Assembly (NCBI GenBank): GCA_964016885.1
Contig: OZ024741.1
Location: 325,562,001-325,626,000, forward strand
Reading direction: 5' to 3'
From: Eledone cirrhosa
Lineage: Eukaryota
Length of the DNA: 64,000 bases
Shown: piece by piece, positions 13,936 to 34,321 of the stretch
How the letters are laid out: each line of letters begins with the position of its first letter
How positions within the stretch are numbered: the first letter of the stretch is position 1
The notes under the pieces: model-generated
What the model was told of the DNA's origin: nothing
Databases searched by the model: none
The model's input: only the letters and a program-made list of their open reading frames with translations
Translations under genes and position numbers: made by a program

Positions 13936-15460
13936 GTAAAAGAAATCAAAGAACGTCTACATACTTATATTTTTATATGCTGACAGTGTTTCATCCATAC
14001 CATGGGGCAGGAATCATCAGAGCTTTATAAACAAAAATATAGTGCTGAGTATAAGCTCTACCAAGCTTAGTCACACGAACATTAGATATACAGTACAGGA
14101 TAATAATGGCGAGGTCGGAAATCGAAAGGATGGAGAGAATGCGTAATGGGGTTGTTATTCAACATTACAGCTACATATGAGGATATAGGCAGAATTTCTC
14201 ACAAGAGGCGGAGGCACATGAGGGCACACAGAAACAAATAGAGCATTTAACGATAGTTATAAAATATAATAATAATAATAAAGTAAAATTAAAATAAAAA
14301 TAAAAATAAAAATACAAAAATAATTATAAAAATAATTAAAAATATTTAAAGCACGCAAAGCCAGAGGAAGTTATCCATTGGTCACTATATAGAGCAGGTG
14401 ATTTAGTTTCCGATAACTTAGAGTTATAGAAATACTAAGAGACCCCTAAGGTACCTTCAGAAAATCCAAAGGGGATTTTATTCCTCCCCATAGTATACAT
14501 AATCAGGGTATACTAGTAGGTTACGGAATTACGTGGACCAGGTGTGCTAAACCTGAACATATACAGGCACCACATCAATACAAGCTAAACATAGACAATG
14601 CGGGGTTAATGCATGGTCAAGCTGAAGCAAATAATACACAACAAATATGGTTTAGTCCCTGTATAAGGCACATCTGGCGAGGAGTCACGACATATGTATT
14701 TCCACCGTAGAAGTTAATCCAATCGGTTTCATATGCCCCGATTGGCGAGGAGTTATAATATAAGTAGATCGTCCATAGATAGTAATCCAGTCTAGAATTT
14801 ACAACATATGTAGATCGTCCGTAAAATGTAATCCAGTCGCATTCATATGCTCATCAAAACATATCAGCACATATGGTAACATATGTTACAGGCTGATGTT
14901 ACACATAAAAAATCCTCCCATGTTTAAAATTCCAGACCGCGATGTGTTGTATGTCCAAGTTGCAGCTCCAAATTCCGTATAACCATATTCGTCACACCCA
15001 ACCCAGCAGCGACTGCGTCCAAATAATACCAGGTTAAATGCAGCAGCAATTCCCCTTTGACCAATCGCGCGGACGTGGATTAACAATCAATACAAAACAG
15101 AAAATAACACAAAGTGCTCAAATCTGTAAATCCACCAGGCAACACAGTATGTCCATAAGGTGAGGTCATACCCATATAGGCATACAATAATTATATAAGA
15201 CAACTCTCATACCGCGCAACACTTCCCCATTATAGAATTAGTAAAGTTACCTTGGGCTTATGGACATATCCTACGTTAACCGCGATTTAATAGTCTATGG
15301 TATGACCCATCTGACAATTCTGGAGGTCCAATTATAATAATATAGTTTCATTTGTACGAATCTTATTGATTCAGTGTGATAACTCTGTTGGTGACTGAAT
15401 TGTTATGGCAGTTCGAATTAAATAGTCTCATAGACGACATGATAGAGTAGTTCCCCCTTT
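13936..15460 (-). mobile_element. HHR-bearing PLE pseudo-LTR-like repeat, uninterrupted minus-strand copy (inner boundary uncertain)
   Basis: 13936-15219 is the reverse complement of 15785-16700 joined to 33875-34212; contains an HHR; ends in (TA)n. Confidence 0.75.
13979..14023 (-). ncRNA. Minimal hammerhead ribozyme
   Basis: Minus strand GCT-CTGATGA-TTCC...GGAT-GAAAC-ACT-GTC-AGC. Confidence 0.75.
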
Positions 15461-15497
15461 CTCTGCTATTGAAACGTCATTATTTGGTGACTGAAAA

Positions 15498-15680
15498 ATG
15501 TGGATTGGCAGTATCGGTAGAGGGTCGGACGCCATGCTTTGACGCATAGAGTTACAGCCCTTGCCATTCTGAGTTCAAAGCCACGGAGGTTAACTTTGCC
15601 TTTCATCTTTACGGGGTCGATAAAATAAAGTACCAGTAATGCACTGGTTAATTGCTGGCCTTGTGCCAAAAGCAGAATCA
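15498..15680 (+). mobile_element. tRNA-derived SINE with 19-bp target-site duplication
   Basis: A box TGGCAGTATCGG, B box GAGTTCAAAGCC; TSD ATTATTTGGTGACTGAAAA at 15479-15497 and 15681-15699. Confidence 0.9.
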
Positions 15681-15784
15681 ATTATTTGGTGACTGAAAAG
15701 AGTATGTGCCTTCTACGTCATGGATTGGTGTGTATATACCTATCGCAGTGTGTTTATTTTTTTCAGAGCAGAGTTCCTGGATTA

Positions 15785-16700
15785 TTGCGCGGTATGAGAG
15801 CTGTCTTATATAATTATTGTATGCCTATATGGGTATGACCTCACCTTATGGACATACTGTGGTGCCTGGTGGATTTACTGATTTGAGCACTTTGTGTTAT
15901 TTTCTGTTTTGTATTGATTGTTAATCCACGTCCGCGCGATTGGTCAAAGGGGAATTGCTGCTGCATTTAACCAGGTATTGTTTGGACGCGGTCGCGGCTG
16001 GATTGGACGAATATGGTTATATGGAATTTGAAGCTGCAACTTGGACATATAGCACATCGCGGTCTGGAATTTTAAACATGGGAGGATTTTTTATGTGTAA
16101 CATCAGCCTGTGCATGTTACTATATGTGCTGATATGTTTTGATGAGCATATGAATGCGACTGGATTACATTTTACGGACGATCTACATATGTTGTAAATT
16201 CTAGACTGGATTACTATCGGACGATCTACTTATATTATAACTCCTCGCCAATCGGGGCATATGAAACCGATTGGATTAACTTCTACGGTGGAAATACATA
16301 TGTCGTGACTCCTCGCCAGATGTGCCTTATACAGGGACTAAACCATATTTATTGTGTATTATTTGCTTCAGCTTGACCATGTATTAACCCCGCTTTGTCT
16401 GTGTTTGGCTTGTATTGATGTGGTGCCTGTATATGTGTAGGTTTAGCACACATGGTCCACGTAATTCCGTAACCTACTAGTATACCCTGATTATGTATAC
16501 TATGGAGAGGAATAAAATCCCCGTTGGACTTTCTGAAGGTACCTTAGAGGTCTCTTAGTATTTCTATAACTCTAAGTTATGGGAAACTAAATCACCTGCT
16601 CTATATAGTGACCAATAGATAACTTCCTCTGGCTTTGCGTGCTTTACATTTTTTTAATTATTTTTATAATTATTATTGTATTTTAATTTTAATTTTACTT
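15785..16700 (+). mobile_element. 5' part of the plus-strand copy of the HHR-bearing repeat; continues at 33875 after the retrotransposon array
   Basis: Reverse complement of ~14280-15219. Confidence 0.85.
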
Positions 16701-19700
16701 TATTATTATTATTATTATTGTTATTGTTATTCCTTGAATCTCAGTCATTGATGTTGGTTAACTGGAAAGTCCGTTGGATTGAATATCAAGCAACTACCTG
16801 CAGCCTCAGATATTCAGGACGTATCGGAGGGTTCTTGCTGTTCCAAGCAAGCATGCCTTTTGAAGCGTTCCAAAAATCGTGAAGGGGCCGATTTTCTTTA
16901 ACCATCCCTGGAAACTTTTGGAGATAGTCCCCAGTGCGCCTATGACAATCGGGATCACTTTGACTTCATGGCAGTTCCAAATCCTTTTCACCTCCCACTT
17001 TAGGTCCTGGTATCGGTTAATTTTCTCCCTCTCCTTCTCTTGCACTCTCGTGTCGAACGGGCAGGCCACATCCACAATCAGGCACGATCTTTTTTCTTTG
17101 TCCACAACCACCAGGTCAGGTCTATTGTGTTCCAGTTTTTTGTCCGTCTGTATCCTAAAATCCCACAGCACCTTCACCTGATTGTTCTCCATCACCGCCT
17201 CTGGCCTATGCTCATACCATTTCTCAGAATGTGGTAGATTGTTTACTTTGCACAGGTGCCAGTGGATCACCCTGCCCATCACATCGTGTCTCCAGCCCTT
17301 ATAGTGGGTCTGGGCTAGGTGTTTACACTCGGACACAATGTGAGCCACAGTCTCCTCTCTCTCTCCACAGATCCTGCACAGTGGGCTAGCCTCCTCCTTG
17401 TAGATATGGTGCTTCAACCACTTCGTTTTGAGGGCCTGCTCCTGCGCAGCCATTAGCATTCCTTCTGTAGCCTTTTTGAGGTCTCCTCTTCTCAACCAGT
17501 TCCATGTCTGTGGATCTCTAAATTCAGTTTTCTCAAAGAAGGTACTATGAAGGGATTTTCCCTTAAGGCTGCTCTTCCTCCTTGATGTTATTTCCTCCTT
17601 GGACATCCCCTGGCCTACTGTCCCCTCCTTCAGTACAGTTCTGAGCATTGGCTCCTTACTATAGGTCACGTATTTGTATAGGTTGTTTTTCTCCATCTGA
17701 ACACAGTCCTCTATGCTGATAAGACCTCTTCCACCCTCAGATCTCCTTAGGTAGAGTCTATCGACATCACTCCTCTTGTGGAACATGTTGTAGATAGTCA
17801 ATAGTTTCCTAGTCTTCCTATCCATTTCTTTTTGTTCAGCAACATTCTATCTCAGAATTCCCGCACTGTACCTAATAATAGACACAGCTCGGGAATTTAC
17901 TGCGCTTATGGCATTTCTGCTGTTCAGATGTGTCTTCAATACGCTCCTTACTCTCCGAATGTATTCAGTTCTTAACAATTCCTTCATTTTTTTGTTCTTT
18001 ATGCCATCAGCCTCCAGAACGCCCAAATACTTGTATCCTTCCTCAGAGTCAATTTCCTTTATCATCTCACCTGTTGGTATCTGGATCCCGTTACTTCTGC
18101 TCAACCTACCCCTCTTCATCACAATGACTCCACATTTACCAACACCAAACTGCATACATATATCACTGCTGAAAATACGGACAGTGTCAACAAGCACATC
18201 CAACTCCTTCTCACTTTTCCCGATGAGCTTGAGATCGTCCATGAAGAGGAGGTGATTGATGGTAAGCTCTCCCCTTCCCAACTTGTATCCTGCTCTCACT
18301 TTTCGCAGCATAATGGTCAAGGGCATCAGGGCAAGGACAAACAACAGAGGGCACAGGCTATCTCCCTGGAAGATACCTCTCTTGATCTTCACGCTTCCCA
18401 AGGATACTCCAGTTGATGTCAACTCTGTCTCCCAGGACCCCATACTCCTGCCTAGCAACTGTCTGATGTTATCTGCCACCCTGAAGATCTCCAGGCTTTT
18501 GGTGATCCAGGAATGAGGCACCATGTCAAATGCCTTTCTGTAGTCTATCCATCCCATGGCAAGATCAGTGTGTCTCCTCCTGCAATTCCCCATTACCATC
18601 TTATCAATAAGCAACTGGTCCTTTGTACCACGTGACTTCTTTCGGCATCCTTTCTGTTCGTCCGGTAACAAGTTGTTTGTGTGGAGGTGATGGTAGATTT
18701 CCTCAGCCACAATGCTCGTCAACAGTTTCCACATTACGGGCAGACATGTAATAGGTCTATAGTTGGTAACATCATTACCCTTGATTCGGTCTTTCATTAT
18801 CAGAACTGTGGTACCTTTTGTCAACCACTCTGGCACCTCACCCGACACCAAGCAGTCATTGAACATGGCCGTCAGCTTCGGGTGGAAGGATGTTAAATGT
18901 TTAATCCAATACCCCTGCACACCATCTGGGCCTGGTGATTTCCAGTTGGTTAGTTTTTTGGCTTGCCCCTTAAGAGTTTCAACTGTGATACTCAAATCAG
19001 TCTGTTGCTGTGCCTGCTCACCGATCTCCCTCTGTACTGTCTCAATCCACCCTGCCTGGGCATTGTGTCTAACATCCTGCTCCCATATTCCTCTCCAGAA
19101 TGTTTTAGTATATTCCGCCCCAGGGATCAAGTCGTTGCCTCTTTCTTTCCCCTCAAGCTGTCCAAACAGCATCTTCTGGTTGTTGTCGAACACGCGGTTC
19201 TGTTTATACTGACTGACTCTGTTCTCGTATCGCCTGATTTTTGCACTCTTTGCTACAATGCGTTGCTTCAATTCCTCTATGATAATATTTAGCTTTTTAC
19301 TCCTAGTTTTGTATTTTATTTCCAGTCTATTTTTAGTGCCTATGTTTTTTAGTGTCCCATTCAGTAGTGACTCAAGCTTTCCTATGTCATTTCTCATTTC
19401 CCCGATTTGCCCACTCAGTCGCTTCTTCCACCACGGCTCTGCTCTTTCTTGTCTGTTGTTTCCTCTCGCTTTTATACCAAGTAGTTTCCTCACCGTATGT
19501 GCTGTTGCTTTGAGGATATTGTTGCACTGGTGAAGGCTCCTCGCCTCAAGGTATGGGATGACTTTGTTTACCTTAGCTGTTGTTTCTTTTAACTTTTTCC
19601 TGTGTACAAATCTTAGGTTCATAGGTCTCCCACTATCATTGTTCAATTCATCTACCACTAAATTTAGGATGTCAACCGAATCTTGTCCTAGCCCGTCAGC

Positions 19701-21280
19701 ATTCATCTCCTCAGTGGCCGTATCTCTCTTCCAGGTATTATTTATCTCAGTATTCAGATCATTGTCTGCTTCGGGTGGTTCCTCCGTTCTCAGGACCTCC
19801 TCACCTTCATTTCCCACCGGCTCGCTTGTCTGGCATACTACACCCGCCATCTCCAAGCCATTCTCTCTGCTCAGTTCCTCCAGTTCCAGCTCGCTTATCC
19901 ACCCATTAGTTCTTATTACCCGAGCCTGCCCGGCCAACTTTTGTTCATCTAATTTAAATAAACCAATCTCGTTCCAGATGTTATGCATCCGTCTCCTGTA
20001 GCCCCTCTCCTTGGGGTTACTTTTCAGGTAGCATTGCATAACAGTTCTATTCAATTCTTTCGTCCAGTTGGTTCTGGCCCCTTTCCTTCTTCTTCTTCCT
20101 CCAACATCAGCAGTATTTGGTTGACAGTCAGGTTCCTGCTGCTGAGCCAGGGGGCACCTGTTGGGTGAGAGTCTGTCACATGACGTTCTAGTCTCCATTT
20201 CACCGTTATTCGAACTGTTTATGTTCGATATTTAAACACTCTTATCGAGGATTGGCGAATGTATAGTTACATAGCCATCTGTGGGTCCGCCATCCCACTT
20301 GGCCCTTGTGTGGCATTATCGCCACGCTGTATACGAACACACATAAACAAACAAACACACAGGCAGAAAGGGCCCCAAAAATGAATAAGCATAAGTTTCA
20401 TTGTAATGTAGTGTTCGAATGTCTGACTTAGTTTTTGTTTTTTAAGTTTTAGTTTCTCCCCCCTCTTCTCTGTCCGTCCGCCTGCTTCTCTCTTCATTCT
20501 TATTTTCTTTACGTTTTTGGGGTTTCTTTTTTTGTTTTTGTTTTTCTCTGTTTGTTTTTCTCGTTTTTGCTGTTGTTGCTGTGCTGCTTTGGTTTTGTTG
20601 TTTGTTTTTTCTTTTTTCTTTTGAGTCTATCTATATATTTTGATGCCTTCCTCTTATTAGTAGTAGGAATTCTATAATGTGGAAGTAGCAGCCAGCAGGG
20701 AGAAGTGGGAGACTGGCGGCGGTAGCGATACTGAGACAGTGGTGGTGGTGATGTCGATACCGAGGCAGTGGTGGCGGTGATGTGACCGTATTACTGTAGT
20801 GATGGTGCTGTAGCGGTGGCAGTAGTGAAGGAGTCAAGGGGTGGTGGCGGCGGTGATGGGATAGTGGTGGTAATGATGGCCGTAGTGAGCGGTGGCGGTG
20901 AAGGTGAAAATGTCGTTATCTGGCTGTTGTGTTTAGTGTACACAGATGATGGGGTGGGTGGTGTATCTAGTTTCTGGTGTTGGTGAGTTTAGCTGTCCTA
21001 TATAGTGTAGCCAGAGGAGAGGAGGGGGGGGGGTTCTTCTTCTTCCATTTATAGCCATTTTCTTTTTTGGATATACAGTGTACAATACAAAGTTGAATAT
21101 TTGAATATTTGAGCCTTATAACAATATATTTTGGGTCCGAATTTTTTGGGGCTCAAGCCGGGTGCTTTACGTAGCATTTGTACTAAGAGTTGTTATTTCA
21201 CAAATGATTTAAATATGTTAAAAATTCAAAACTTACGGGAGCGATTTCATGACCTCCGTCACCTCGTGCGTCTTCTTCCC
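16700..21280 (-). mobile_element. R4/Dong-type non-LTR retrotransposon, copy A (full length, ~4.6 kb, ~1.08-kb 5' UTR, (AAT)n tail)
   Basis: RT plus CCHC plus restriction-like endonuclease (RLE); both ends abut (TTA)n. Confidence 0.9.
16806..20198 (-). pseudogene. Copy A RT-RLE ORF broken by one nonsense change (TGG>TAG at 17847-17849)
   Basis: The 783-aa and 339-aa ORFs are in the same frame and collinear with the 1130-aa ORF of copies D and F. Confidence 0.92.
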
Positions 21281-21297
21281 TTATTATTATTATTATT

Positions 21298-21476
21298 TGG
21301 ATTGGCAGTATCGGTAGAGGGTCGGACGCCATGCTTTCCAGCATAGTTACGTCCCTTTACGATCTGAGTTCAAATCCCGCCGAGGTTGACTTTGCCTTTC
21401 ATCCTTACGGGGTCGATAAAATAAAGTACCAGTAATGCACTGGGTGATTGCTGGCCTTGTGCCTAAAGTAGAAACA

Positions 21477-21478
<2 letters not shown>
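21298..21478 (+). mobile_element. tRNA-derived SINE flanked by (TTA)n inside the array
   Basis: A and B boxes, family core, (ATT)n tail. Confidence 0.9.
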
Positions 21479-21515
<37 letters not shown>

Positions 21516-22684
21516 GTTATTGTTATTCCTTGAATCTCAGTTATTGATGTTGGTTAACTGGAAAGTCCGTTGGATTGAATATCAAGCCACTACCTGCAGC
21601 CTCAGATATTCAGGACGTATCGGAGGGTTCTTGCTGTTCCAAGCAAGCATGCCTTTTGAAGCGTTCCAAAAAGCGTGAAGGGGCCGATTTTCTTTAACCA
21701 TCCCTGGAAACCTTTGGAGATAGTCCCCAGTGCGCCTATGACAATCGGGATCACTTTGACTTCATGGCAGTTCCAAATCCTTTTCACCTCCCACTTTAGG
21801 TCCTGGTATCGGTTAATTTTCTCCCTCTCCTTCTCTTGCACTCTCGTGTCGAACGGGCAGGCCACATCCACAATCAGGCACGATCTTTTTTCTTTGTCCA
21901 CAACCACCAGGTCAGGTCTATTGTGTTCCAGTTTTTTGTCCGTCTGTATCCTAAAATCCCACAGCACCTTCACCTGATTGTTCTCCATCACCGCCTCTGG
22001 CCTATGCTCATACCATTTCTCAGAATGTGGTAGATTGTTTACTTTGCACAGGTGCCAGTGGATCACCCTGCCCATCACATCGTGTCTCCAGCCCTTATAG
22101 TGGGTCTGGGCTAGGTGTTTACACTCGGACACAATGTGAGCCACAGTCTCCTCTCTCTCTCCACAGATCCTGCACAGTGGGCTAGCCTCCTCCTTGTAGA
22201 TATGGTGCTTCAACCACTTCGTTTTGAGGGCCTGCTCCTGCGCAGCCATTAGCATTCCTTCTGTAGCCTTTTTGAGGTCTCCTCTTCTCAACCAGTTCCA
22301 TGTCTGTGGATCTCTAAATTCAGTTTTCTCAAAGAAGGTACTATGAAGGGATTTTCCCTTAAGGCTGCTCTTCCTCCTTGATGTTATTTCCTCCTTGGAC
22401 ATCCCCTGGCCTACTGTCCCCTCCTTCAGTACAGTTCTGAGCATTGGCTCCTTACTATAGGTCACGTATTTGTATAGGTTGTTTTTCTCCATCTGAACAC
22501 AGTCCTCTATGCTGATAAGACCTCTTCCACCCTCAGATCTCCTTAGGTAGAGTCTATCGACATCACTCCTCTTGTGGAACATGTTGTAGATAGTCAATAG
22601 CTTCCTAGTCTTCCTATCCATTTCTTTTTGTTCAGCAACATTCCATCTCAGAATTCCCGCACTGTACCTAATAATAGACACAGC

Positions 22685-22685
<1 letters not shown>
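21479..22685 (-). mobile_element. R4/Dong copy B, 5'-truncated (~1.2 kb)
   Basis: Matches the C-terminal third of the ORF; truncation junction GACACAGCT|ATTATT. Confidence 0.93.
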
Positions 22686-22727
<42 letters not shown>

Positions 22728-23896
22728 GTTATTGTTATTCCTTGAATCTCAGTCATTGATGTTGGTTAACTGGAAAGTCCGTTGGATTGAATATCAAGCC
22801 ACTACCTGCAGCCTCAGATATTCAGGACGTATCGGAGGGTTCTTGCCGTTCCAAGCAAGCATGCCTTTTGAAGCGTTCCAAAAAGCGTGAAGGGGCCGAT
22901 TTTCTTTAACCATCCCTGAAAACCTTTGGAGATAGTCCCCAGTGCGCCTATGACAATCGGGATCACTTTGACTTCATGGCAGTTCCAAATCCTTTTCACC
23001 TCCCACTTTAGGTCCTGGTATCGGTTAATTTTCTCCCTCTCCTTCTCTTGCACTCTCGTGTCGAACGGGCAGGCCACATCCACAATCAGGCACGATCTTT
23101 TTTCTTTGTCCACAACCACCAGGTCAGGTCTATTGTGTTCCAGTTTTTTGTCCGTCTGTATCCTAAAATCCCACAGCACCTTCACCTGACTGTTCTCCAT
23201 CACCGCCTCTGGCCTATGCTCATACCATTTCTCAGAATGTGGTAGATTGTTTACTTTGCACAGGTGCCAGTGGATCACCCTGCCCATCACATCGTGTCTC
23301 CAGCCCTTATAGTGGGTCTGGGCTAGGTGTTTACACTCGGACACAATGTGAGCCACAGTCTCCTCTCTCTCTCCACAGATCCTGCACAGTGGGCTAGCCT
23401 CCTCCTTGTAGATATGGTGCTTCAACCACTTCGTTTTGAGGGCCTGCTCCTGCGCAGCCATTAGCATTCCTTCTGTAGCCTTTTTGAGGTCTCCTCTTCT
23501 CAACCAGTTCCATGTCTGTGGATCTCTAAATTCAGTTTTCTCAAAGAAGGTACTATGAAGGGATTTTCCCTTAAGGCTGCTCTTCCTCCTTGATGTTATT
23601 TCCTCCTTGGACATCCCCTGGCCTACTGTCCCCTCCTTCAGTACAGTTCTGAGCATTGGCTCCTTACTATAGGTCACGTATTTGTATAGGTTGTTTTTCT
23701 CCATCTGAACACAGTCCTCTATGCTGATAAGACCTCTTCCACCCTCAGATCTCCTTAGGTAGAGTCTATCGACATCACTCCTCTTGTGGAACATGTTGTA
23801 GATAGTCAATAGCTTCCTAGTCTTCCTATCCATTTCTTTTTGTTCAGCAACATTCCATCTCAGAATTCCCGCACTGTACCTAATAATAGACACAGC

Positions 23897-23897: not shown

Positions 23898-23939
<42 letters not shown>

Positions 23940-26900
23940 GTTATTGTTATTCCTTGAATCTCAGTCATTGATGTTGGTTAACTGGAAAGTCCGTTGGATT
24001 GAATATCAAGCCACTACCTGCAGCCTCAGATATTCAGGACGTATCGGAGGGTTCTTGCCGTTCCAAGCAAGCATGCCTTTTGAAGCGTTCCAAAAAGCGT
24101 GAAGGGGCCGATTTTCTTTAACCATCCCTGAAAACCTTTGGAGATAGTCCCCAGTGCGCCTATGACAATCGGGATCACTTTGACTTCATGGCAGTTCCAA
24201 ATCCTTTTCACCTCCCACTTTAGGTCCTGGTATCGGTTAATTTTCTCCCTCTCCTTCTCTTGCACTCTCGTGTCGAACGGGCAGGCCACATCCACAATCA
24301 GGCACGATCTTTTTTCTTTGTCCACAACCACCAGGTCAGGTCTATTGTGTTCCAGTTTTTTGTCCGTCTGTATCCTAAAATCCCACAGCACCTTCACCTG
24401 ACTGTTCTCCATCACCGCCTCTGGCCTATGCTCATACCATTTCTCAGAATGTGGTAGATTGTTTACTTTGCACAGGTGCCAGTGGATCACCCTGCCCATC
24501 ACATCGTGTCTCCAGCCCTTATAGTGGGTCTGGGCTAGGTGTTTACACTCGGACACAATGTGAGCCACAGTCTCCTCTCTCTCTCCACAGATCCTGCACA
24601 GTGGGCTAGCCTCCTCCTTGTAGATATGGTGCTTCAACCACTTCGTTTTGAGGGCCTGCTCCTGCGCAGCCATTAGCATTCCTTCTGTAGCCTTTTTGAG
24701 GTCTCCTCTTCTCAACCAGTTCCATGTCTGTGGATCTCTAAATTCAGTTTTCTCAAAGAAGGTACTATGAAGGGATTTTCCCTTAAGGCTGCTCTTCCTC
24801 CTTGATGTTATTTCCTCCTTGGGTATCCCCTGGCCTACTGTCCCCTCCTTCAGTACAGCTCTGAGCATTGGCTCCTTACTATAGGTCACGTATTTGTATA
24901 GGTTGTTTTTCTCCATCTGAACACAGTCCTCTATGCTGATAAGACCTCTTCCACCCTCAGATCTCCTTAGGTAGAGTCTATCGACATCACTCCTCTTGTG
25001 GAACATGTTGTAGATAGTCAATAGCTTCCTAGTCTTCCTATCCATTTCTTTTTGTTCAGCAACATTCCATCTCAGAATTCCCGCACTGTACCTAATAATA
25101 GACACAGCTCGGGAATTTACTGCGCTTATGGCATTTCTGCTGTTCAGATGTGACTTCAATACGCTCCTTACTCTCCGAATGTATTCAGTTCTTAACAATT
25201 CCTTCATTTTTTTGTTCTTTATGCCATCAGCCTCCAGAACGCCCAAATACTTGTATCCTTCCTCAGAGTCAATTTCCTTTATCATCTCACCTGTTGGTAT
25301 CTGGATCCCGTTACTTCTGCTCAACCTACCCCTCCTCATCACAATGACTCCACATTTACCAATACCAAACTGCATACATATATCACTGCTGAAAATACGG
25401 ACAGTGTCAACAAGCACATCCAACTCCTTCTCACTTTTCCCGAAGAGCTTAAGATCGTCCATGAAGAGGAGGTGATTGATGGTAAGCTCTCCCCTTCCCA
25501 ACTTGTATCCTGCTCTCACTTTTCGCAGCATAATGGTCAAGGGCATCAGGGCAAGGACAAACAACAGAGGGGACAGGCTATCTCCCTGGAAGATACCTCT
25601 CTTGATCTTCACGCTTCCCAAGGATACTCCAGTTGATGTCAACTCTGTCTCCCAGGACCCCATACTCCTGCCCAGCAACTGTCTGATGTTATCTGCCACC
25701 CCGAAGATCTCCAGGCTTTTGGTGATCCAGGAATGAGGCACCATGTCAAATGCCTTTCTGTAGTCTATCCATCCCATGGCAAGATCAGTGTGTCTCCTCC
25801 TGCAATTCCCCATTACCATCTTATCAATAAGCAACTGGTCCTTTGTACCACGTGACTTCTTTCGGCATCCTTTCTGTTCGTCCGGCAACAAGTTGTTTGT
25901 GTGGAGGTGATGGTAGATTTCCTCAGACACAATGCTCGTCAACAGTTTCCACATTACGGGCAGACATGTGATAGGTCTATAGTTGGTAACATCATTACCC
26001 TTGATTCGGTCTTTCATTATCAGAACTGTGGTACCTTTTGTCAACCACTCTGGCACCTCACCCGACACCAAGCAGTCATTGAACATGGCCGTCAGCTTCG
26101 GGTGGAGGGATGTTAAATGTTTAATCCAATACCCCTGCACACCATCTGGGCCTGGTGATTTCCAGTTGGTTAGTTTTTTGGCTTGCCCCTTAAGAGTTTC
26201 AACTGTGATACTCAAATCAGTCTGTTGCTGTGCCTGCTCACCGATCTCCCTCTGTACTGTCTCAATCCACCCTGCCTGGGCATTGTGTCTAACATCCTGC
26301 TCCCATATTCCTCTCCAGAATGTTTTAGCTTGTTCCGCCCCAGGGATCAAGTCGTTGCCTCTTTCTTTCCCCTCAAGCTGTCCAAACAGCATCTTCTGGT
26401 TGTTGTCGAACATGCGGTTCTGTTTATACTGACTGACTCTGTTCTCGTATCGCCTAATTTTGGCACTCCTTGCTACAATGCGTTGCTTCAATTCCTCTAT
26501 GATAATATTTAGCTTTTTACTCCTAGTTTTGTATTTTATTTCCAGTCTATTTTTAGTGCCTATGTTTTTTAGTGTCCCATTCAGTAGTGACTCAAGCTTT
26601 CCTATGTCATTTCTCATTTCCCCGATTTGCCCACTCAGTCGCTTCTTCCACCACGGCTCTGCTCTTTCTTGTCTGTTGTTTCCTCTCGCTTTTATACCAA
26701 GTAGTTTCCTCACCGTATTTGCTGTTGCTTTGAGGATATTGTTGCACTGGTGAAGTCTCCTCGCCTCAAGGTATGGGATGACTTTGTTTACCTTAGCTGT
26801 TGTTTCTTTTAACTTTTTCCTGTCTACAAATCTTAGGTTCATAGGTCTCCCACTATCATTGTTCAACTCATCTACCACTAAATTTAGGATGTCAACCGAA

Positions 26901-28502
26901 TCTTGTCCTAGCCCGTCAGCATTCATCTCCTCAGTGGCCGTATCTCTGTTCCAGGTATTATTTATCTCAGTATTCAGATCATTGTCTGCTTCGGGTGGTT
27001 CCTCCGTTCTCAGGACCTCCTCACCTTCATTTCCCGCCGGCTCGCTTGTCTGGCATACTACACCCGCCATCTCCAAGCCATTCTCTCTGCTCAGTTCCTC
27101 CAGTTCCAGCTCGCTTATCCACCCATTAGTTCTTATTACCCGAGCCTGCCCGGCCAATTTTTGTTCATCTAATTTAAATAAACCAATCTCGTTCCAGATG
27201 TTATGCATCCGTCTCCTGTAGCCCCTCTCCTTGGGGTTACTTTTCAGGTAGCATTGCATAACAGTTCTATTCAATTCTTTCGTCCAGTTGGTTCTGGCCC
27301 CTTTCCTTCTTCTTCTTCCTCCAACATCAGCAGTATTTGGTTGACAGTCAGGTTCCTGCTGCTGAGCCAGGGGGCACCTGTTGGGTGAGAGTCTGTCACA
27401 TGACGTTCTAGTCTCCATTTCACCGTTATTCGAACTGTTTATGTTCGATATTTAAACACTCTTATCGAGGATTGGCGAATGTATGTTTACATAGCCATCT
27501 GTGGATCCGCCATCCCACTTGGCCCTTGTGTGGCATTATCACCACGCTGTATACGGACACACATAAACAAACAAACACACGGGCAGAAAGGGCCCCAAAA
27601 ATGAATAAGCATAAGTTTCATTGTAATGTAGTATTCGAATGTCTGACTTAGTTTTTGTTTTTTAAGTTTTACTTTTTCCCCCCTCTTCTCTGTCCGTCCG
27701 CCTGCTTCTCTCTTCATTCTTATTTTCTTTACGTTTTTGGGGTTTCTTTTTTTGTTTTTGTTTTTCTCTGTTTGTTTTTCTCGTTTTTGCTGTTGTTGCT
27801 GTGCTGCTTTGGTTTTGTTGTTTGTTTTTTCTTTTTTCTTTTGAGTCTATCTATATATTTTGATGCCTTCCTCTTATTAGTAGTAGGAATTCTATAATGT
27901 GGAAGTAGCAGCCAGCAGGGAGAAGTGGGAGACTGGCGGCGGTAGCGATACTGAGACAGTGGTGGTGGTGATGTCGATACCGAGGCAGTGGTGGCGGTGA
28001 TGTGACCGTATTACTGTAGTGATGGTGCTGTAGCGGTGGCAGTAGTGAAGGAGTCAAGGGGTGGTGGCGGCGGTGATGGGATAGTGGTGGTAATGATGGC
28101 CGTAGTGAGCGGTGGCGGTGAAGGTGAAAATGTCGTTATCTGGCTGTTGTGTTTAGTGTACACAGATGATGGGGTGGGTGGTGTATCTAGTTTCTGGTGT
28201 TGGTGAGTTTAGCTGTCCTATATAGTGTAGCCAGAGGAGAGGAGGGGGGGGGGGGTTCTTCTTCTTCCATTTATAGCCATTTTCTTTTTTGGATATACAG
28301 TGTACAATACAAAGTTGAATATTTGAATATTTGAGCCTTATAACAATATATTTTGGGTCCGAATTTTTTGGGGCTCAAGCCGGGTGCTTTACGTAGCATT
28401 TGTACTAAGAGTTGTTATTTCACAAATGATTTAAATATGTTAAAAATTCAAAACTTACGGGAGCGATTTCATGACCTCCGTCACCTCGTGCGTCTTCTTC
28501 CC
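23898..28502 (-). mobile_element. R4/Dong copy D, full length with intact ORF
   Basis: Collinear with copy A at an offset of ~7220 bp. Confidence 0.92.
24026..27418 (-). CDS. Non-LTR retrotransposon protein, 1130 aa (Myb-like N-terminus, reverse transcriptase, CCHC knuckle, RLE endonuclease), R4 clade
   Basis: WTKELN...CY, KSPGPDG, NYRPITCL, IDYRKAFD, GIFQGDSLSP, LFMDDLKL, CRIC...HIVSEC, NRPDLVV...IVDVACP. Confidence 0.93.
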   Translation of the reverse strand: METRTSCDRLSPNRCPLAQQQEPDCQPNTADVGGRRRRKGARTNWTKELNRTVMQCYLKSNPKERGYRRRMHNIWNEIGLFKLDEQKLAGQARVIRTNGWISELELEELSRENGLEMAGVVCQTSEPAGNEGEEVLRTEEPPEADNDLNTEINNTWNRDTATEEMNADGLGQDSVDILNLVVDELNNDSGRPMNLRFVDRKKLKETTAKVNKVIPYLEARRLHQCNNILKATANTVRKLLGIKARGNNRQERAEPWWKKRLSGQIGEMRNDIGKLESLLNGTLKNIGTKNRLEIKYKTRSKKLNIIIEELKQRIVARSAKIRRYENRVSQYKQNRMFDNNQKMLFGQLEGKERGNDLIPGAEQAKTFWRGIWEQDVRHNAQAGWIETVQREIGEQAQQQTDLSITVETLKGQAKKLTNWKSPGPDGVQGYWIKHLTSLHPKLTAMFNDCLVSGEVPEWLTKGTTVLIMKDRIKGNDVTNYRPITCLPVMWKLLTSIVSEEIYHHLHTNNLLPDEQKGCRKKSRGTKDQLLIDKMVMGNCRRRHTDLAMGWIDYRKAFDMVPHSWITKSLEIFGVADNIRQLLGRSMGSWETELTSTGVSLGSVKIKRGIFQGDSLSPLLFVLALMPLTIMLRKVRAGYKLGRGELTINHLLFMDDLKLFGKSEKELDVLVDTVRIFSSDICMQFGIGKCGVIVMRRGRLSRSNGIQIPTGEMIKEIDSEEGYKYLGVLEADGIKNKKMKELLRTEYIRRVRSVLKSHLNSRNAISAVNSRAVSIIRYSAGILRWNVAEQKEMDRKTRKLLTIYNMFHKRSDVDRLYLRRSEGGRGLISIEDCVQMEKNNLYKYVTYSKEPMLRAVLKEGTVGQGIPKEEITSRRKSSLKGKSLHSTFFEKTEFRDPQTWNWLRRGDLKKATEGMLMAAQEQALKTKWLKHHIYKEEASPLCRICGEREETVAHIVSECKHLAQTHYKGWRHDVMGRVIHWHLCKVNNLPHSEKWYEHRPEAVMENSQVKVLWDFRIQTDKKLEHNRPDLVVVDKEKRSCLIVDVACPFDTRVQEKEREKINRYQDLKWEVKRIWNCHEVKVIPIVIGALGTISKGFQGWLKKIGPFTLFGTLQKACLLGTARTLRYVLNI

Positions 28503-28519
28503 TTATTATTATTATTATT

Positions 28520-28698
28520 TGGATTGGCAGTATCGGTAGAGGGTCGGACGCCATGCTTTCCAGCATAGTTACGTCCCTTTACGATCTGAGTTCAAATCCC
28601 GCCGAGGTTGACTTTGCCTTTCATCCTTACGGGGTCGATAAAATAAAGTACCAGTAATGCACTGGGTGATTGCTGGCCTTGTGCCTAAAGTAGAAACA

Positions 28699-28700
<2 letters not shown>
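28520..28700 (+). mobile_element. tRNA-derived SINE, duplicate of 21298-21478
   Basis: Same sequence and same context. Confidence 0.9.
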
Positions 28701-28737
<37 letters not shown>

Positions 28738-29906
28738 GTTATTGTTATTCCTTGAATCTCAGTTATTGATGTTGGTTAACTGGAAAGTCCGTTGGATTGA
28801 ATATCAAGCCACTACCTGCAGCCTCAGATATTCAGGACGTATCGGAGGGTTCTTGCTGTTCCAAGCAAGCATGCCTTTTGAAGCGTTCCAAAAAGCGTGA
28901 AGGGGCCGATTTTCTTTAACCATCCCTGGAAACCTTTGGAGATAGTCCCCAGTGCGCCTATGACAATCGGGATCACTTTGACTTCATGGCAGTTCCAAAT
29001 CCTTTTCACCTCCCACTTTAGGTCCTGGTATCGGTTCATTTTCTCCCTCTCCTTCTCTTGCACTCTCGTGTCGAACGGGCAGGCCACATCCACAATCAGG
29101 CACGATCTTTTTTCTTTGTCCACAACCACCAGGTCAGGTCTATTGTGTTCCAGTTTTTTGTCCGTCTGTATCCTAAAATCCCACAGCACCTTCACCTGAT
29201 TGTTCTCCATCACCGCCTCTGGCCTATGCTCATACCATTTCTCAGAATGTGGTAGATTGTTTACTTTGCACAGGTGCCAGTGGATCACCCTGCCCATCAC
29301 ATCGTGTCTCCAGCCCTTATAGTGGGTCTGGGCTAGGTGTTTACACTCGGACACAATGTGAGCCACAGTCTCCTCTCTCTCTCCACAGATCCTGCACAGT
29401 GGGCTAGCCTCCTCCTTGTAGATATGGTGCTTCAACCACTTCGTTTTGAGGGCCTGCTCCTGCGCAGCCATTAGCATTCCTTCTGTAGCCTTTTTGAGGT
29501 CTCCTCTTCTCAACCAGTTCCATGTCTGTGGATCTCTAAATTCAGTTTTCTCAAAGAAGGTACTATGAAGGGATTTTCCCTTAAGGCTGCTCTTCCTCCT
29601 TGATGTTATTTCCTCCTTGGACATCCCCTGGCCTACTGTCCCCTCCTTCAGTACAGTTCTGAGCATTGGCTCCTTACTATAGGTCACGTATTTGTATAGG
29701 TTGTTTTTCTCCATCTGAACACAGTCCTCTATGCTGATAAGACCTCTTCCACCCTCAGATCTCCTTAGGTAGAGTCTATCGACATCACTCCTCTTGTGGA
29801 ACATGTTGTAGATAGTCAATAGCTTCCTAGTCTTCCTATCCATTTCTTTTTGTTCAGCAACATTCCATCTCAGAATTCCCGCACTGTACCTAATAATAGA
29901 CACAGC

Positions 29907-29907
<1 letters not shown>
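28701..29907 (-). mobile_element. R4/Dong copy E, 5'-truncated, duplicate of B
   Basis: Same breakpoint; shares the B-specific 3' UTR variant CTCAGTTATTG; one amino-acid difference (KINR vs KMNR). Confidence 0.92.
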
Positions 29908-29949
<42 letters not shown>

Positions 29950-32900
29950 GTTATTGTTATTCCTTGAATCTCAGTCATTGATGTTGGTTAACTGGAAAGT
30001 CCGTTGGATTGAATATCAAGCCACTACCTGCAGCCTCAGATATTCAGGACGTATCGGAGGGTTCTTGCCGTTCCAAGCAAGCATGCCTTTTGAAGCGTTC
30101 CAAAAAGCGTGAAGGGGCCGATTTTCTTTAACCATCCCTGAAAACCTTTGGAGATAGTCCCCAGTGCGCCTATGACAATCGGGATCACTTTGACTTCATG
30201 GCAGTTCCAAATCCTTTTCACCTCCCACTTTAGGTCCTGGTATCGGTTAATTTTCTCCCTCTCCTTCTCTTGCACTCTCGTGTCGAACGGGCAGGCCACA
30301 TCCACAATCAGGCACGATCTTTTTTCTTTGTCCACAACCACCAGGTCAGGTCTATTGTGTTCCAGTTTTTTGTCCGTCTGTATCCTAAAATCCCACAGCA
30401 CCTTCACCTGACTGTTCTCCATCACCGCCTCTGGCCTATGCTCATACCATTTCTCAGAATGTGGTAGATTGTTTACTTTGCACAGGTGCCAGTGGATCAC
30501 CCTGCCCATCACATCGTGTCTCCAGCCCTTATAGTGGGTCTGGGCTAGGTGTTTACACTCGGACACAATGTGAGCCACAGTCTCCTCTCTCTCTCCACAG
30601 ATCCTGCACAGTGGGCTAGCCTCCTCCTTGTAGATATGGTGCTTCAACCACTTCGTTTTGAGGGCCTGCTCCTGCGCAGCCATTAGCATTCCTTCTGTAG
30701 CCTTTTTGAGGTCTCCTCTTCTCAACCAGTTCCATGTCTGTGGATCTCTAAATTCAGTTTTCTCAAAGAAGGTACTATGAAGGGATTTTCCCTTAAGGCT
30801 GCTCTTCCTCCTTGATGTTATTTCCTCCTTGGGTATCCCCTGGCCTACTGTCCCCTCCTTCAGTACAGCTCTGAGCATTGGCTCCTTACTATAGGTCACG
30901 TATTTGTATAGGTTGTTTTTCTCCATCTGAACACAGTCCTCTATGCTGATAAGACCTCTTCCACCCTCAGATCTCCTTAGGTAGAGTCTATCGACATCAC
31001 TCCTCTTGTGGAACATGTTGTAGATAGTCAATAGCTTCCTAGTCTTCCTATCCATTTCTTTTTGTTCAGCAACATTCCATCTCAGAATTCCCGCACTGTA
31101 CCTAATAATAGACACAGCTCGGGAATTTACTGCGCTTATGGCATTTCTGCTGTTCAGATGTGACTTCAATACGCTCCTTACTCTCCGAATGTATTCAGTT
31201 CTTAACAATTCCTTCATTTTTTTGTTCTTTATGCCATCAGCCTCCAGAACGCCCAAATACTTGTATCCTTCCTCAGAGTCAATTTCCTTTATCATCTCAC
31301 CTGTTGGTATCTGGATCCCGTTACTTCTGCTCAACCTACCCCTCCTCATCACAATGACTCCACATTTACCAATACCAAACTGCATACATATATCACTGCT
31401 GAAAATACGGACAGTGTCAACAAGCACATCCAACTCCTTCTCACTTTTCCCGAAGAGCTTAAGATCGTCCATGAAGAGGAGGTGATTGATGGTAAGCTCT
31501 CCCCTTCCCAACTTGTATCCTGCTCTCACTTTTCGCAGCATAATGGTCAAGGGCATCAGGGCAAGGACAAACAACAGAGGGGACAGGCTATCTCCCTGGA
31601 AGATACCTCTCTTGATCTTCACGCTTCCCAAGGATACTCCAGTTGATGTCAACTCTGTCTCCCAGGACCCCATACTCCTGCCCAGCAACTGTCTGATGTT
31701 ATCTGCCACCCCGAAGATCTCCAGGCTTTTGGTGATCCAGGAATGAGGCACCATGTCAAATGCCTTTCTGTAGTCTATCCATCCCATGGCAAGATCAGTG
31801 TGTCTCCTCCTGCAATTCCCCATTACCATCTTATCAATAAGCAACTGGTCCTTTGTACCACGTGACTTCTTTCGGTATCCTTTCTGTTCGTCCGGCAACA
31901 AGTTGTTTGTGTGGAGGTGATGGTAGATTTCCTCAGACACAATGCTCGTCAACAGTTTCCACATTACGGGCAGACATGTGATAGGTCTATAGTTGGTAAC
32001 ATCATTACCCTTGATTCGGTCTTTCATTATCAGAACTGTGGTACCTTTTGTCAACCACTCTGGCACCTCACCCGACACCAAGCAGTCATTGAACATGGCC
32101 GTCAGCTTCGGGTGGAGGGATGTTAAATGTTTAATCCAATACCCCTGCACACCATCTGGGCCTGGTGATTTCCAGTTGGTTAGTTTTTTGGCTTGCCCCT
32201 TAAGAGTTTCAACTGTGATACTCAAATCAGTCTGTTGCTGTGCCTGCTCACCGATCTCCCTCTGTACTGTCTCAATCCACCCTGCCTGGGCATTGTGTCT
32301 AACATCCTGCTCCCATATTCCTCTCCAGAATGTTTTAGCTTGTTCCGCCCCAGGGATCAAGTCGTTGCCTCTTTCTTTCCCCTCAAGCTGTCCAAACAGC
32401 ATCTTCTGGTTGTTGTCGAACATGCGGTTCTGTTTATACTGACTGACTCTGTTCTCGTATCGCCTAATTTTGGCACTCCTTGCTACAATGCGTTGCTTCA
32501 ATTCCTCTATGATAATATTTAGCTTTTTACTCCTAGTTTTGTATTTTATTTCCAGTCTATTTTTAGTGCCTATGTTTTTTAGTGTCCCATTCAGTAGTGA
32601 CTCAAGCTTTCCTATGTCATTTCTCATTTCCCCGATTTGCCCACTCAGTCGCTTCTTCCACCACGGCTCTGCTCTTTCTTGTCTGTTGTTTCCTCTCGCT
32701 TTTATACCAAGTAGTTTCCTCACCGTATTTGCTGTTGCTTTGAGGATATTGTTGCACTGGTGAAGTCTCCTCGCCTCAAGGTATGGGATGACTTTGTTTA
32801 CCTTAGCTGTTGTTTCTTTTAACTTTTTCCTGTCTACAAATCTTAGGTTCATAGGTCTCCCACTATCATTGTTCAACTCATCTACCACTAAATTTAGGAT

Positions 32901-33779
32901 GTCAACCGAATCTTGTCCTAGCCCGTCAGCATTCATCTCCTCAGTGGCCGTATCTCTGTTCCAGGTATTATTTATCTCAGTATTCAGATCATTGTCTGCT
33001 TCGGGTGGTTCCTCCGTTCTCAGGACCTCCTCACCTTCATTTCCCGCCGGCTCGCTTGTCTGGCATACTACACCCGCCATCTCCAAGCCATTCTCTCTGC
33101 TCAGTTCCTCCAGTTCCAGCTCGCTTATCCACCCATTAGTTCTTATTACCCGAGCCTGCCCGGCCAATTTTTGTTCATCTAATTTAAATAAACCAATCTC
33201 GTTCCAGATGTTATGCATCCGTCTCCTGTAGCCCCTCTCCTTGGGGTTACTTTTCAGGTAGCATTGCATAACAGTTCTATTCAATTCTTTCGTCCAGTTG
33301 GTTCTGGCCCCTTTCCTTCTTCTTCTTCCTCCAACATCAGCAGTATTTGGTTGACAGTCAGGTTCCTGCTGCTGAGCCAGGGGGCACCTGTTGGGTGAGA
33401 GTCTGTCACATGACGTTCTAGTCTCCATTTCACCGTTATTCGAACTGTTTATGTTCGATATTTAAACACTCTTATCGAGGATTGGCGAATGTATGTTTAC
33501 ATAGCCATCTGTGGATCCGCCATCCCACTTGGCCCTTGTGTGGCATTATCACCACGCTGTATACGGACACACATAAACAAACAAACACACGGGCAGAAAG
33601 GGCCCCAAAAATGAATAAGCATAAGTTTCATTGTAATGTAGTATTCGAATGTCTGACTTAGTTTTTGTTTTTTAAGTTTTACTTTTTCCCCCCTCTTCTC
33701 TGTCCGTCCGCCTGCTTCTCTCTTCATTCTTATTTTCTTTACGTTTTTGGGGTTTCTTTTTTTTTTTTTTTTGTTTTTC
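29908..33779 (-). mobile_element. R4/Dong copy F, intact ORF, truncated within the 5' UTR
   Basis: 5' UTR stops in a T-run at ~33779, followed by ~95 bp of (TTA)n. Confidence 0.92.
30036..33428 (-). CDS. Non-LTR retrotransposon protein, 1130 aa, R4 clade
   Basis: Matches 24026-27418 except QKGC>QKGY. Confidence 0.93.
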   Translation of the reverse strand: METRTSCDRLSPNRCPLAQQQEPDCQPNTADVGGRRRRKGARTNWTKELNRTVMQCYLKSNPKERGYRRRMHNIWNEIGLFKLDEQKLAGQARVIRTNGWISELELEELSRENGLEMAGVVCQTSEPAGNEGEEVLRTEEPPEADNDLNTEINNTWNRDTATEEMNADGLGQDSVDILNLVVDELNNDSGRPMNLRFVDRKKLKETTAKVNKVIPYLEARRLHQCNNILKATANTVRKLLGIKARGNNRQERAEPWWKKRLSGQIGEMRNDIGKLESLLNGTLKNIGTKNRLEIKYKTRSKKLNIIIEELKQRIVARSAKIRRYENRVSQYKQNRMFDNNQKMLFGQLEGKERGNDLIPGAEQAKTFWRGIWEQDVRHNAQAGWIETVQREIGEQAQQQTDLSITVETLKGQAKKLTNWKSPGPDGVQGYWIKHLTSLHPKLTAMFNDCLVSGEVPEWLTKGTTVLIMKDRIKGNDVTNYRPITCLPVMWKLLTSIVSEEIYHHLHTNNLLPDEQKGYRKKSRGTKDQLLIDKMVMGNCRRRHTDLAMGWIDYRKAFDMVPHSWITKSLEIFGVADNIRQLLGRSMGSWETELTSTGVSLGSVKIKRGIFQGDSLSPLLFVLALMPLTIMLRKVRAGYKLGRGELTINHLLFMDDLKLFGKSEKELDVLVDTVRIFSSDICMQFGIGKCGVIVMRRGRLSRSNGIQIPTGEMIKEIDSEEGYKYLGVLEADGIKNKKMKELLRTEYIRRVRSVLKSHLNSRNAISAVNSRAVSIIRYSAGILRWNVAEQKEMDRKTRKLLTIYNMFHKRSDVDRLYLRRSEGGRGLISIEDCVQMEKNNLYKYVTYSKEPMLRAVLKEGTVGQGIPKEEITSRRKSSLKGKSLHSTFFEKTEFRDPQTWNWLRRGDLKKATEGMLMAAQEQALKTKWLKHHIYKEEASPLCRICGEREETVAHIVSECKHLAQTHYKGWRHDVMGRVIHWHLCKVNNLPHSEKWYEHRPEAVMENSQVKVLWDFRIQTDKKLEHNRPDLVVVDKEKRSCLIVDVACPFDTRVQEKEREKINRYQDLKWEVKRIWNCHEVKVIPIVIGALGTISKGFQGWLKKIGPFTLFGTLQKACLLGTARTLRYVLNI

Positions 33780-33874
<95 letters not shown>

Positions 33875-33877
<3 letters not shown>

Positions 33878-34308
33878 TTTATAACTATCGTTAAATGCTC
33901 TATTTGTTTTTGTGTGCCCTAATGTGCCTCTGCCTCTTGTGAGAAAATCTGCCTATATCCTCATATGTAGCTGTAATGTTGATTAACAACCCCATTACGC
34001 ATTCTCTCCATCCTTTCCATTTCCGATCTCCCCATTATTATCCTGTACTGTATATCTAATATTCGTGTGACAAAGCTTGGTAGAGATTATACTCAGTATT
34101 ATATTTTTGTTTATAAAGCTCTGATGATTCCTGCCCCATGGTATGGATGAAACACTGTCAGCAAATAAAAATTGTATGAGTATGTAGGCGTTCTTTGATG
34201 TCTTTTACATATAACGGCTCTGTTCTTGTACATTGAGCTAATACAATACTGTCACAAATACGACACGGTGCAGGTGCGTTTATGCACATACGCTCCGTTG
34301 TCTAAGTA
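33875..34308 (+). mobile_element. 3' part of the interrupted HHR-bearing repeat
   Basis: 33875-34212 is the reverse complement of ~13936-14268; ends in (TA)n. Confidence 0.85.
34118..34162 (+). ncRNA. Minimal hammerhead ribozyme
   Basis: GCT-CTGATGA-TTCC...GGAT-GAAAC-ACT-GTC-AGC followed by AATAAA. Confidence 0.78.
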
Positions 34309-34321
34309 TATATATATATAT

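Follow-up and report, generated by a model that had tools for sequence, protein, structure and literature searches.

Local duplication as the probable route of growth of a Dong/R4-type retrotransposon array inside a Penelope-like element pair of Eledone cirrhosa

Tandem retrotransposon arrays have been described for Drosophila R1 and hobo, where site preference leads to double insertion and unequal exchange then enlarges the array (PMC5932611). Elements of the Dong/R4 group are described as having a single reading frame with reverse transcriptase (RT) and restriction-like endonuclease and no N-terminal zinc finger, and their (TAA)n target is reported from insects, molluscs and cnidarians (PMC7998251). 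In Octopus vulgaris, Dong-R4 is reported as the largest of the recently active LINE groups (PMC13282606), and Bombyx Dong is reported to self-cleave at its 5' end via an HDV-like ribozyme (PMC3774820). Penelope-like elements, as described, encode RT followed by GIY-YIG, carry an inverted, 5'-truncated head-to-head partner and (TA)n flanks, and have pseudo-LTRs with minimal hammerheads in which helix II is long and helix III tiny (PMC8557442; PMC4209133).

We analyzed a 64,000-nucleotide stretch of the Eledone cirrhosa assembly (the window, positions 325,562,001 to 325,626,000 of contig OZ024741.1), in which an array of 17,176 bp (16700-33875) interrupts an older Penelope-type element. The array holds six LINE copies of the R2 group (Dong/R4-type) and two SINE copies. 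We are fairly confident that four insertions, three of a TAA-targeting Dong/R4-type LINE and one of a SINE, built its core and that two local duplications then enlarged it, likely through recombination between neighbor copies. It resembles the Drosophila R1 and hobo tandem dimers in that insertion is repeated at one target, neighbors recombine and the array grows, but differs in that the target is a microsatellite within another retroelement, the duplicated unit is a composite of UTR, SINE, LINE and LINE, and there are only two duplications, both with mappable switch points. Array growth by this route is known biology and the importance of the locus is modest; it is a clean worked example of a microsatellite-targeting retrotransposon that nests in a retroelement and whose nest enlarges by duplication, and one in which the empty site has a near-reference and both switch points can be mapped.

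The interrupted Penelope-like pair

The inverted repeat that the array interrupts consists of two truncated Penelope-like elements joined head to head, with inverted homology between 13931-14344 and 34213-33795 (91.7% over 420 nt) and between 14266-15219 and 16724-15785 (94.5% over 954 nt). Arm 1 (13936-15219, minus strand) is the pseudo-LTR region of a 5'-truncated element whose 3' end faces outward into (TA)n, and its sequence also borders RT and GIY-YIG remnants at another locus, L091. Arm 2, on the plus strand, is joined head-to-head to arm 1 and begins with further 5' sequence of the same element (15220-15784), within which lies a SINE with a target duplication (about 15500-15686). A stem around unrelated DNA was rejected, since 15220-15784 is more element sequence plus this SINE, and a DNA-transposon or foldback reading was dropped for the Penelope reading. 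Arm 2 continues as a left half before the array (15785-16699) and a right half after it (33874-34212), followed by an extension of about 95 nt found in arm 2 only (34213-34307, plus strand) and then (TA)n. This extension is likely the one-sided Penelope tail, which is given as 30-40 nt in the described elements.

Longer copies elsewhere in the genome (L091, L093 and L095) align to a 635-aa homolog across RT and GIY-YIG (tblastn E 7e-65 and 9e-24), with weak Pfam matches (GIY-YIG E 0.028 and 0.009; RVT_1 E 0.004). L091 has 1,258-nt inverted arms, 97% alike, that enclose the coding remnant, and further head-to-head pairs were found at L071/L074, L076/L082 and L092. The family has the RT followed by GIY-YIG (as remnants, and in its longer copies), the head-to-head 5'-truncated inverted copy and the (TA)n flanks of Penelope-like elements; unlike the described elements, the window copies are non-coding, without Penelope RT or GIY-YIG coding sequence.

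The two halves flanking the array are collinear with the inverted partner, as an earlier note on this DNA had proposed, with 31/915 substitutions on the left (3.4%) and 17/331 on the right (5.1%). The site that it quoted is found at 14257-14290 on the minus strand, and the junctions of its halves with the array lie at 16699/16700 and 33873/33874. The partner, which the note took as the pre-insertion site, serves as a collinear near-reference but is a sister copy diverged by about 4%, not an empty allele. Its target run is (TAA)5 on the plus strand (14267-14281), that is, five TTA units; the proposed (TTA)4 is found only if four units are counted in the ATT register. The claim that four triplets were enough for the first insertion is unsupported: the partner has five, the recipient arm may have had a different number at the time, and the SINE may have preceded the LINE. 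Four units are the family norm (18/27 other sites). A family-wide hotspot was rejected: the LINE is present at 0/27 other sites examined, and exact-flank sites with six or more units number only three genome-wide, to be read as at least three since exact-pattern searching of flanked TAA sites gives lower bounds.

Both arms carry a predicted minimal type I hammerhead-like motif (13979-14023, minus strand, and 34118-34162, plus strand), in agreement with the ribozyme-bearing repeat of the earlier note, and from sequence this is a candidate hammerhead whose self-cleavage is putative. The core motif is intact in 25/30 distinct copies, both window copies included. As in Penelope-like pseudo-LTRs, helix II of the motif is long and its helix III tiny, but unlike the described minimal hammerheads its first helix II pair is U-U in most copies. 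The helices are paired in 96.5% of cells with 0 compensatory changes and no excess over shuffles, in a covariation test of low power because the copies are 93% alike, and the folding z is about 0. No Rfam hammerhead match was found; the window had no Rfam match at the gathering score, only chance matches by E-value.

The LINE and its TAA target

The LINE has a single frame of 1,141 aa with a non-LTR-type RT (RVT_1, E=1.9e-23) and 1,179 homologs at E<=1e-50. Its best PDB matches are R2 proteins, both by sequence (E=1.7e-30) and by fold. Toward its C-terminus the protein (P0001) carries a CCHC finger and motifs of a restriction-like (PD..D/E.K) endonuclease, which are kept across 59 homologs, and the alignment to the R2 endonuclease segment is weak (i-E 0.053). 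No N-terminal zinc finger was seen in the protein. A four-helix domain is conserved at about residues 55-128. A Myb/SANT test by fold comparison, run on a low-confidence model of it built from the single sequence (pLDDT 57), matched it only to generic helical structures (best Z 6.6). On its frame, motifs and TAA target the LINE is provisionally classed as Dong/R4-type, and it shares with that group the one frame with RT and restriction-like endonuclease and the (TAA)n target, and perhaps also the lack of an N-terminal zinc finger. A possible difference from Bombyx Dong is that no HDV-like 5' ribozyme was matched in copy A or three older relatives by Rfam or by a simple, home-made and unvalidated descriptor.

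The earlier note was correct about the element kind, and a flank survey bore out the TAA preference that it had put forward. By a lenient criterion, (AAT)4 or longer lies within 60 nt upstream of 24/28 other full-length 5' ends, against 0.15% of background positions; a strict TAA-run criterion gives 20/28, and 15/19 visible truncated 5' ends also lie in TAA runs (background for these tests, 0.09-0.15% of positions). Twelve of the 28 other full-length copies lie directly behind another copy's tail, and in eight adjacent pairs the downstream copy is closer to A and its upstream neighbor more diverged. TAA targeting and tail re-use hold genome-wide for the family, and self-feeding insertion is therefore real for it. 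The self-feeding site of the earlier note stands at this level and fails for the present array, which holds duplicates and in which the tail of copy A was not re-used.

Copies and duplicates within the array

All LINE copies are on the minus strand and both SINEs are on the plus strand. Copy A (16700-21280) is full length, with a tail of six TTA (16700-16731), a body of 4,549 nt (16732-21280) and a reading frame (16806-20231) with a stop at codon 795. It is followed by (TTA)5 and SINE s1 (21281-21476, the SINE itself at 21297-21476) and by the 5'-truncated copy B (21477-22685; a 1,158-nt body plus tail). Copy C (22686-23897) is a chimera with a D-type 3' part and a B-type 5' part and junction; its bases change from D-type to B-type between columns 451 and 872 (23190 and 23611), and its tail is that of D. 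Copy D (23898-28502) is a second chimera, with an F-type body and an A-type 5' end and 5'UTR, which switches within roughly the final 90 nt of A/F homology, near 27676-27767; its reading frame is intact (24026-27451). Next are (TTA)5 and SINE s2, identical to s1 (28503-28698), copy E, a duplicate of B (28699-29907), and copy F (29908-33780), whose 5'UTR is missing its initial 733 nt and which has an intact frame (30036-33461; 1,141 aa stop to stop) with RT, CCHC finger and restriction-like endonuclease motif. On the 5' side of F lies (ATT)31 (33781-33873, plus strand). A 733-nt block next to A was considered as a separate element and rejected: it is LINE 5'UTR, continuing into the body at 27/28 other loci. 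The remaining locus (L043) has an internal deletion.

Near-identical local duplicates make up 7,222 of the 17,176 bp (42%), contrary to the view of the array as a series of separate insertions, and account for three of the six LINE copies and one of the two SINE copies. B and E differ by 1 substitution in 1,158, D and F by 2 in 3,816 (A differs from D and F by 46-48), and the two blocks of 5'UTR, SINE and tail by 0 in 1,028. The duplicates share bases (columns 15 and 3925) missing from 24-27 other genomic copies. In the 3.0-Gb assembly the B-type truncation junction occurs three times, all in this array (B, C and E), and the 5' end/SINE junction twice, both here, while no two of 17 other truncation points are alike. 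A ready-made composite transduced from elsewhere was rejected because its junctions occur only in this array. Eight copies thus do not equal eight insertions; three LINE insertions and one SINE insertion were likely followed by duplications of 6,010 and 1,212 bp, made by recombination, not fresh insertion. The collinear halves, the copy structure, the private bases and junctions in common and the two chimeras are what the sequence shows directly. Copy counts in such arrays overstate transposition.

Copy A is the oldest LINE copy by private substitutions (20/3,816, versus 7/3,789 in F, p=0.019, and 1/1,158 in B, p=0.041), where the counts of A and F are really 19 and 6 because one position is common to A, D and F, and where such ages depend on a small number of sites, with the comparison copies down to 3 in mid-element. 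No private bases were found in the SINE. Its opposite orientation, together with short target duplications at other SINE copies, makes it likely that it used machinery other than the LINE's.

Proposed history and alternatives

The events likely ran in the following order. A Penelope-like element would have entered (TA)n as two 5'-truncated head-to-head copies, and copy A and the SINE, in either order, would then have entered a TAA run of 4-5 units. F and B would have followed, entering the run 5' of A, with this run lengthening to 31 units. Copies F and A would then have recombined close to the 5' end of F, duplicating 5'UTR-SINE-B-F (6,010 bp), and an exchange between D and B would have created C (1,212 bp).

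In an alternative that we consider unlikely, yet to be taken seriously, the true locus is a 9,954-bp core (A, SINE, B and F) and both duplications are assembly errors that joined alleles or repeated a read path. The duplicated blocks differ by 3 substitutions in 6,008 plus homopolymer lengths, as two alleles joined by an assembler might; the array is close in length to a typical accurate long read; and the region is heterozygous in the read sample, with two haplotypes at 15276-15435. Sequencing runs X4-X7, compared with 15240-16900 in search of an empty allele, left 16640-16695 uncovered and yielded no long piece, repeat-derived contigs dominating. An allele join gives only one extra unit, however; a further, independent error would be needed for chimera C, which has a switch point of its own, while the real non-homopolymer substitutions at 29037 and 31876 require alleles or change after duplication. 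That every copy is a separate insertion into the tail left by the previous one is scarcely credible. The family's re-use of tails, its pairs of mixed age and other arrays in the genome made up of distinct copies would all suit it, but B, C and E have the same truncation point, the SINE junction occurs twice, C and D are chimeric and private bases are held in common, which refutes it for C, D and E; moreover, A is the oldest copy and its own tail carries no insertion, later copies sitting on its 5' side. It is also improbable that the core pair F and B was laid down in one event, the RT jumping from one RNA to another's tail, with the rest added by duplication. R2-group enzymes are capable of template jumping, a single 14-unit tail joins B and F, and both are similarly young (private bases 0.09% in B and 0.18% in F); the 9/1,158 sites at which they differ, mostly known family variants, fit either route, and mixed-age pairs document sequential insertion in this genome.

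Within the preferred reading, insertion followed by neighbor-copy recombination, the larger exchange falls in the last ~91 nt of 3,816 nt of homology, a position expected with 2.4% probability if exchange were uniform and not predicted by plain unequal crossing-over. The template switch of this 6-kb duplication lies within about 90 nt of (ATT)31, out of the 3,816 nt possible. We raise as a doubtful suggestion that the element drives its own array growth twice, by lengthening the target run at its 5' junction (about 5 to 31 units) and through a break there that is repaired from a neighbor copy, duplicating the array; the break would possibly be made by the element's own endonuclease. If true, the array would be a retrotransposon satellite caught at its start, and the element's nuclease would be linked to satellite birth and microsatellite growth, which is testable on the many arrays of this genome. 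A longer array, of 23.5 kb, lies at another place in the genome.

The array LINE and its target

The 17,176-bp array (16700-33875) carries six copies, A to F, of a single LINE, whose complete form is 4,549 nt. Copy F retains an uninterrupted 1,141-aa frame with a reverse transcriptase (RT), a CCHC finger and a restriction-like endonuclease motif, and its best matches among solved structures are R2 proteins, both by sequence and by fold; a Myb-like domain was not demonstrated by fold comparison of the predicted model. The 733-nt block adjoining A is the 5'UTR of the LINE, continuous with the body at 27 of 28 other loci. Such an architecture and a (TAA)n target are reported for Dong/R4 elements (PMC7998251), and the array LINE is provisionally assigned to this type on these features, consistent with the earlier note. 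In octopus, Dong-R4 elements are described as abundant and as having been active recently (PMC13282606, PMC8967140). The animal assembly that contains the window has a repeat landscape suggestive of an octopus. An HDV-like ribozyme at the 5' end is known for Bombyx Dong (PMC3774820); a search of the 5' end of the array LINE with a simple descriptor gave no match to one.

Family-level preference for TAA was borne out by the flank survey. From 40 scored matches 30 loci were examined, two of which belong to the array itself; among the 28 other full-length 5' ends, an AAT run of three or more units ended at most 6 nt from the element in 20 and a run of four or more lay within 60 nt in 24, against backgrounds of 0.09% and 0.15% over 127,200 flanking positions; the remaining four had an AAT run and then a long AAG run. 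The loci are partly non-independent, L035 and L042 lying in one array and L033 and L040 having similar flanks. The 5' boundary was visible in 19 of 37 other 3'-anchored copies, 15 of them with (AAT)3 or longer and the others with an internal deletion (two), a (TA)n site (one) or an interrupted run (one). At L035, L039, L042, L045, L050 and L019 the AAT run is separated from the element by an (AAG)n tract, a recurring switch of repeat unit at the LINE 5' junction. Elsewhere in the window, 54161-57976 (minus strand) holds a second, distantly related LINE of this type, with 29% identity over 663 aa; it is broken, simple repeats interrupt it, and the stretches read show no TAA flanks.

The Penelope-like host repeat and its insertion site

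The repeat that hosts the array is a Penelope-like element. A first look at the genome gave 1,891 candidates for its arm, and longer copies run on into RT remnants and then a GIY-YIG-type region; Pfam by itself gives weak matches for these remnants, and both regions align to a 635-aa homolog in the protein collection. At one such locus, L091, inverted arms of 1,258 nt (97%) enclose an RT/GIY-YIG-type remnant. The 565 nt between the arms in the window consist of additional Penelope-like sequence and one SINE, so that the arms join head to head at 15219/15220. Truncated inverted partners, flanking microsatellites and a tail on one side are on record for this group (PMC8557442). The earlier note called the inverted repeat ribozyme-bearing, and a hammerhead-like core does lie near the 3' end of each arm. 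Of 30 distinct copies 25 have it intact, and it resembles the minimal Penelope hammerheads, with a long helix II and a tiny helix III (PMC4209133; 10.64898/2026.07.22.740005). An Rfam search of the window gave no hammerhead match, the motif folded no better than shuffles, and covariation was nil in an alignment that, at 93% identity, has little variation to show any; the motif is a putative minimal hammerhead.

Self-BLAST of the window pairs 13931-14344 with 34213-33795 (91.7%) and 14266-15219 with 16724-15785 (94.5%), both inverted. When the uninterrupted arm (13936-15219, minus strand) is split at its TAA run, its left part differs from 15785-16699 by 31 substitutions in 915 bases and its right part from 33874-34212 by 17 in 331, with no element sequence missing at the join, confirming the proposed inverted homology and collinear halves. 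The partner carries five TTA units, not the four given in the earlier note. Four is the commonest number at 27 other distinct family sites (18 sites; three units at five, two at two, six at one and eight at one), drawn from 30 loci in 41 matches after removal of both own loci and of four rows that were duplicates, with no motif match at L086; none of the 27 contains the LINE. Over the whole assembly (3.0 Gb, 1,796 contigs), six or more units occur in at least three places including the array's own site, the exact pattern giving a lower bound. The partner is therefore a sister copy with a divergence of about 4%, and it serves well, if inexactly, as a proxy for the empty site.

Immediately past the right end of the element lies a near-perfect hairpin of 133 nt (34317-34449). 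Further hammerhead-like motifs occur at 290, 946, 44263, 46373 and 61354 (plus strand) and 8611, 62628 and 62739 (minus strand), and an inverted pair at 61325-62657 has one in each of its arms. A remnant of a Penelope-like endonuclease is encoded at 42145-42822. The window therefore likely contains several further families of Penelope elements.

Structure and growth of the array

The plus-strand order of the array is A, SINE, B, C, D, SINE, E, F, (ATT)31. One truncation point is common to B, C and E, whereas 17 truncation points elsewhere all differ. Across the assembly the B-type junction is present three times and the 5' end/SINE junction twice, all within the array. B and E differ by one base, D and F by 2 of 3,816 (A differs from D/F by 46-48), and the two UTR-SINE-tail blocks only in a G-run; the duplicate pairs have common bases absent in 24-27 other copies. 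Two copies are chimeric, C having D-type bases to column 451, B-type from column 872 and the tail of D, and D the body of F with the 5' end of A. In the simplest history, a core of 9,954 bp (A, SINE, B, F and the tract) would have gained two duplicated segments, one of 6,010 bp and one of 1,212 bp, for a total of 17,176 bp. The main rival to real local duplication is an assembly error that duplicated the sequence falsely.

Under local duplication, the Penelope-like pair would have inserted first, and A and the SINE would have entered a short TAA run in either order. The run on the 5' side of A would then have lengthened, perhaps aided by the SINE tail and target duplication, before F and B inserted, and two exchanges between neighbouring copies would have supplied 42% of the array. 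A is likely the oldest LINE copy, since it has the most private substitutions (19-20 of 3,816, compared with 6-7 of 3,789 in F and 1 of 1,158 in B) and a stop at codon 795; the SINE, with 0 of 179 private bases, gives no order relative to A. One oddity is the larger switch point, which lies within the last ~91 of 3,816 homologous bases, beside (ATT)31 (2.4% if uniform); this single case would be consistent with a break in that tract having been repaired.

The earlier note was correct on anatomy, element types and family-level targeting and wrong on the growth of this array: the duplicate junctions, the chimeras and A's own six-unit tail, which no later insertion re-used, contradict a series of fresh insertions, each in the previous tail. 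For Drosophila R1 and hobo, repeated insertion at a favoured site and then unequal exchange are described (PMC5932611), and the array is a new instance of known behaviour. The literature searched, covered in part, yielded no report of Dong arrays amplified by duplication, and we make no claim that such arrays are unpublished.

Tail re-use elsewhere and other features

Self-feeding, as head-to-tail neighbours and arrays of distinct copies attest, is a real and general habit of the LINE family, although it is not how this array reached 17 kb. A head-to-tail neighbour adjoins 12 of 28 full-length and 13 of 37 3'-anchored loci. If identity to A is taken as an approximate measure of age, the younger copy lies in the older copy's tail in eight adjacent pairs and upstream in seven; the second count is the less secure, since identities in the 5'UTR cannot be compared with those at the 3' end. 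Arrays of distinct copies occur in four regions, picked since neighbours were visible there, and the present array is not the only one of its family, nor is it the longest. The array on C7 (G000:C7:26368000-26391500, L113-L115) has five distinct copies head-to-tail over 23.5 kb, differing mutually by ~0.6-2.6%; two are parted by long AAG runs, and one has a 5'UTR segment triplicated.

The array SINE is oriented opposite to the LINE copies, and other SINE copies lie at ATT-containing sites with short target duplications, often tail-to-tail with the LINE; these features suggest that the SINE is likely mobilised by an enzyme other than the LINE's, on the other strand. Tail-to-tail joins on one common microsatellite link a LINE with an inverted LINE at L016 and a LINE with an inverted SINE among L014, L020 and L118, and L072, another copy of the host Penelope-like element, has the same SINE four times in tandem at one ATT site (about 2190-2945).

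The window also contains a Helitron remnant with frames for Rep-like and PIF1 helicase (4061-6928, plus strand), a near-perfect palindrome (9827-11812; 99.7% at 10598-11253) with a (TA)n run at its centre, a minisatellite of 24-nt units with several frames open (36221-37280), and further local duplications at 42742-46478 and 58617-60892 (1.6 kb at 98%, and several 440-nt units by (ATGT)n runs).
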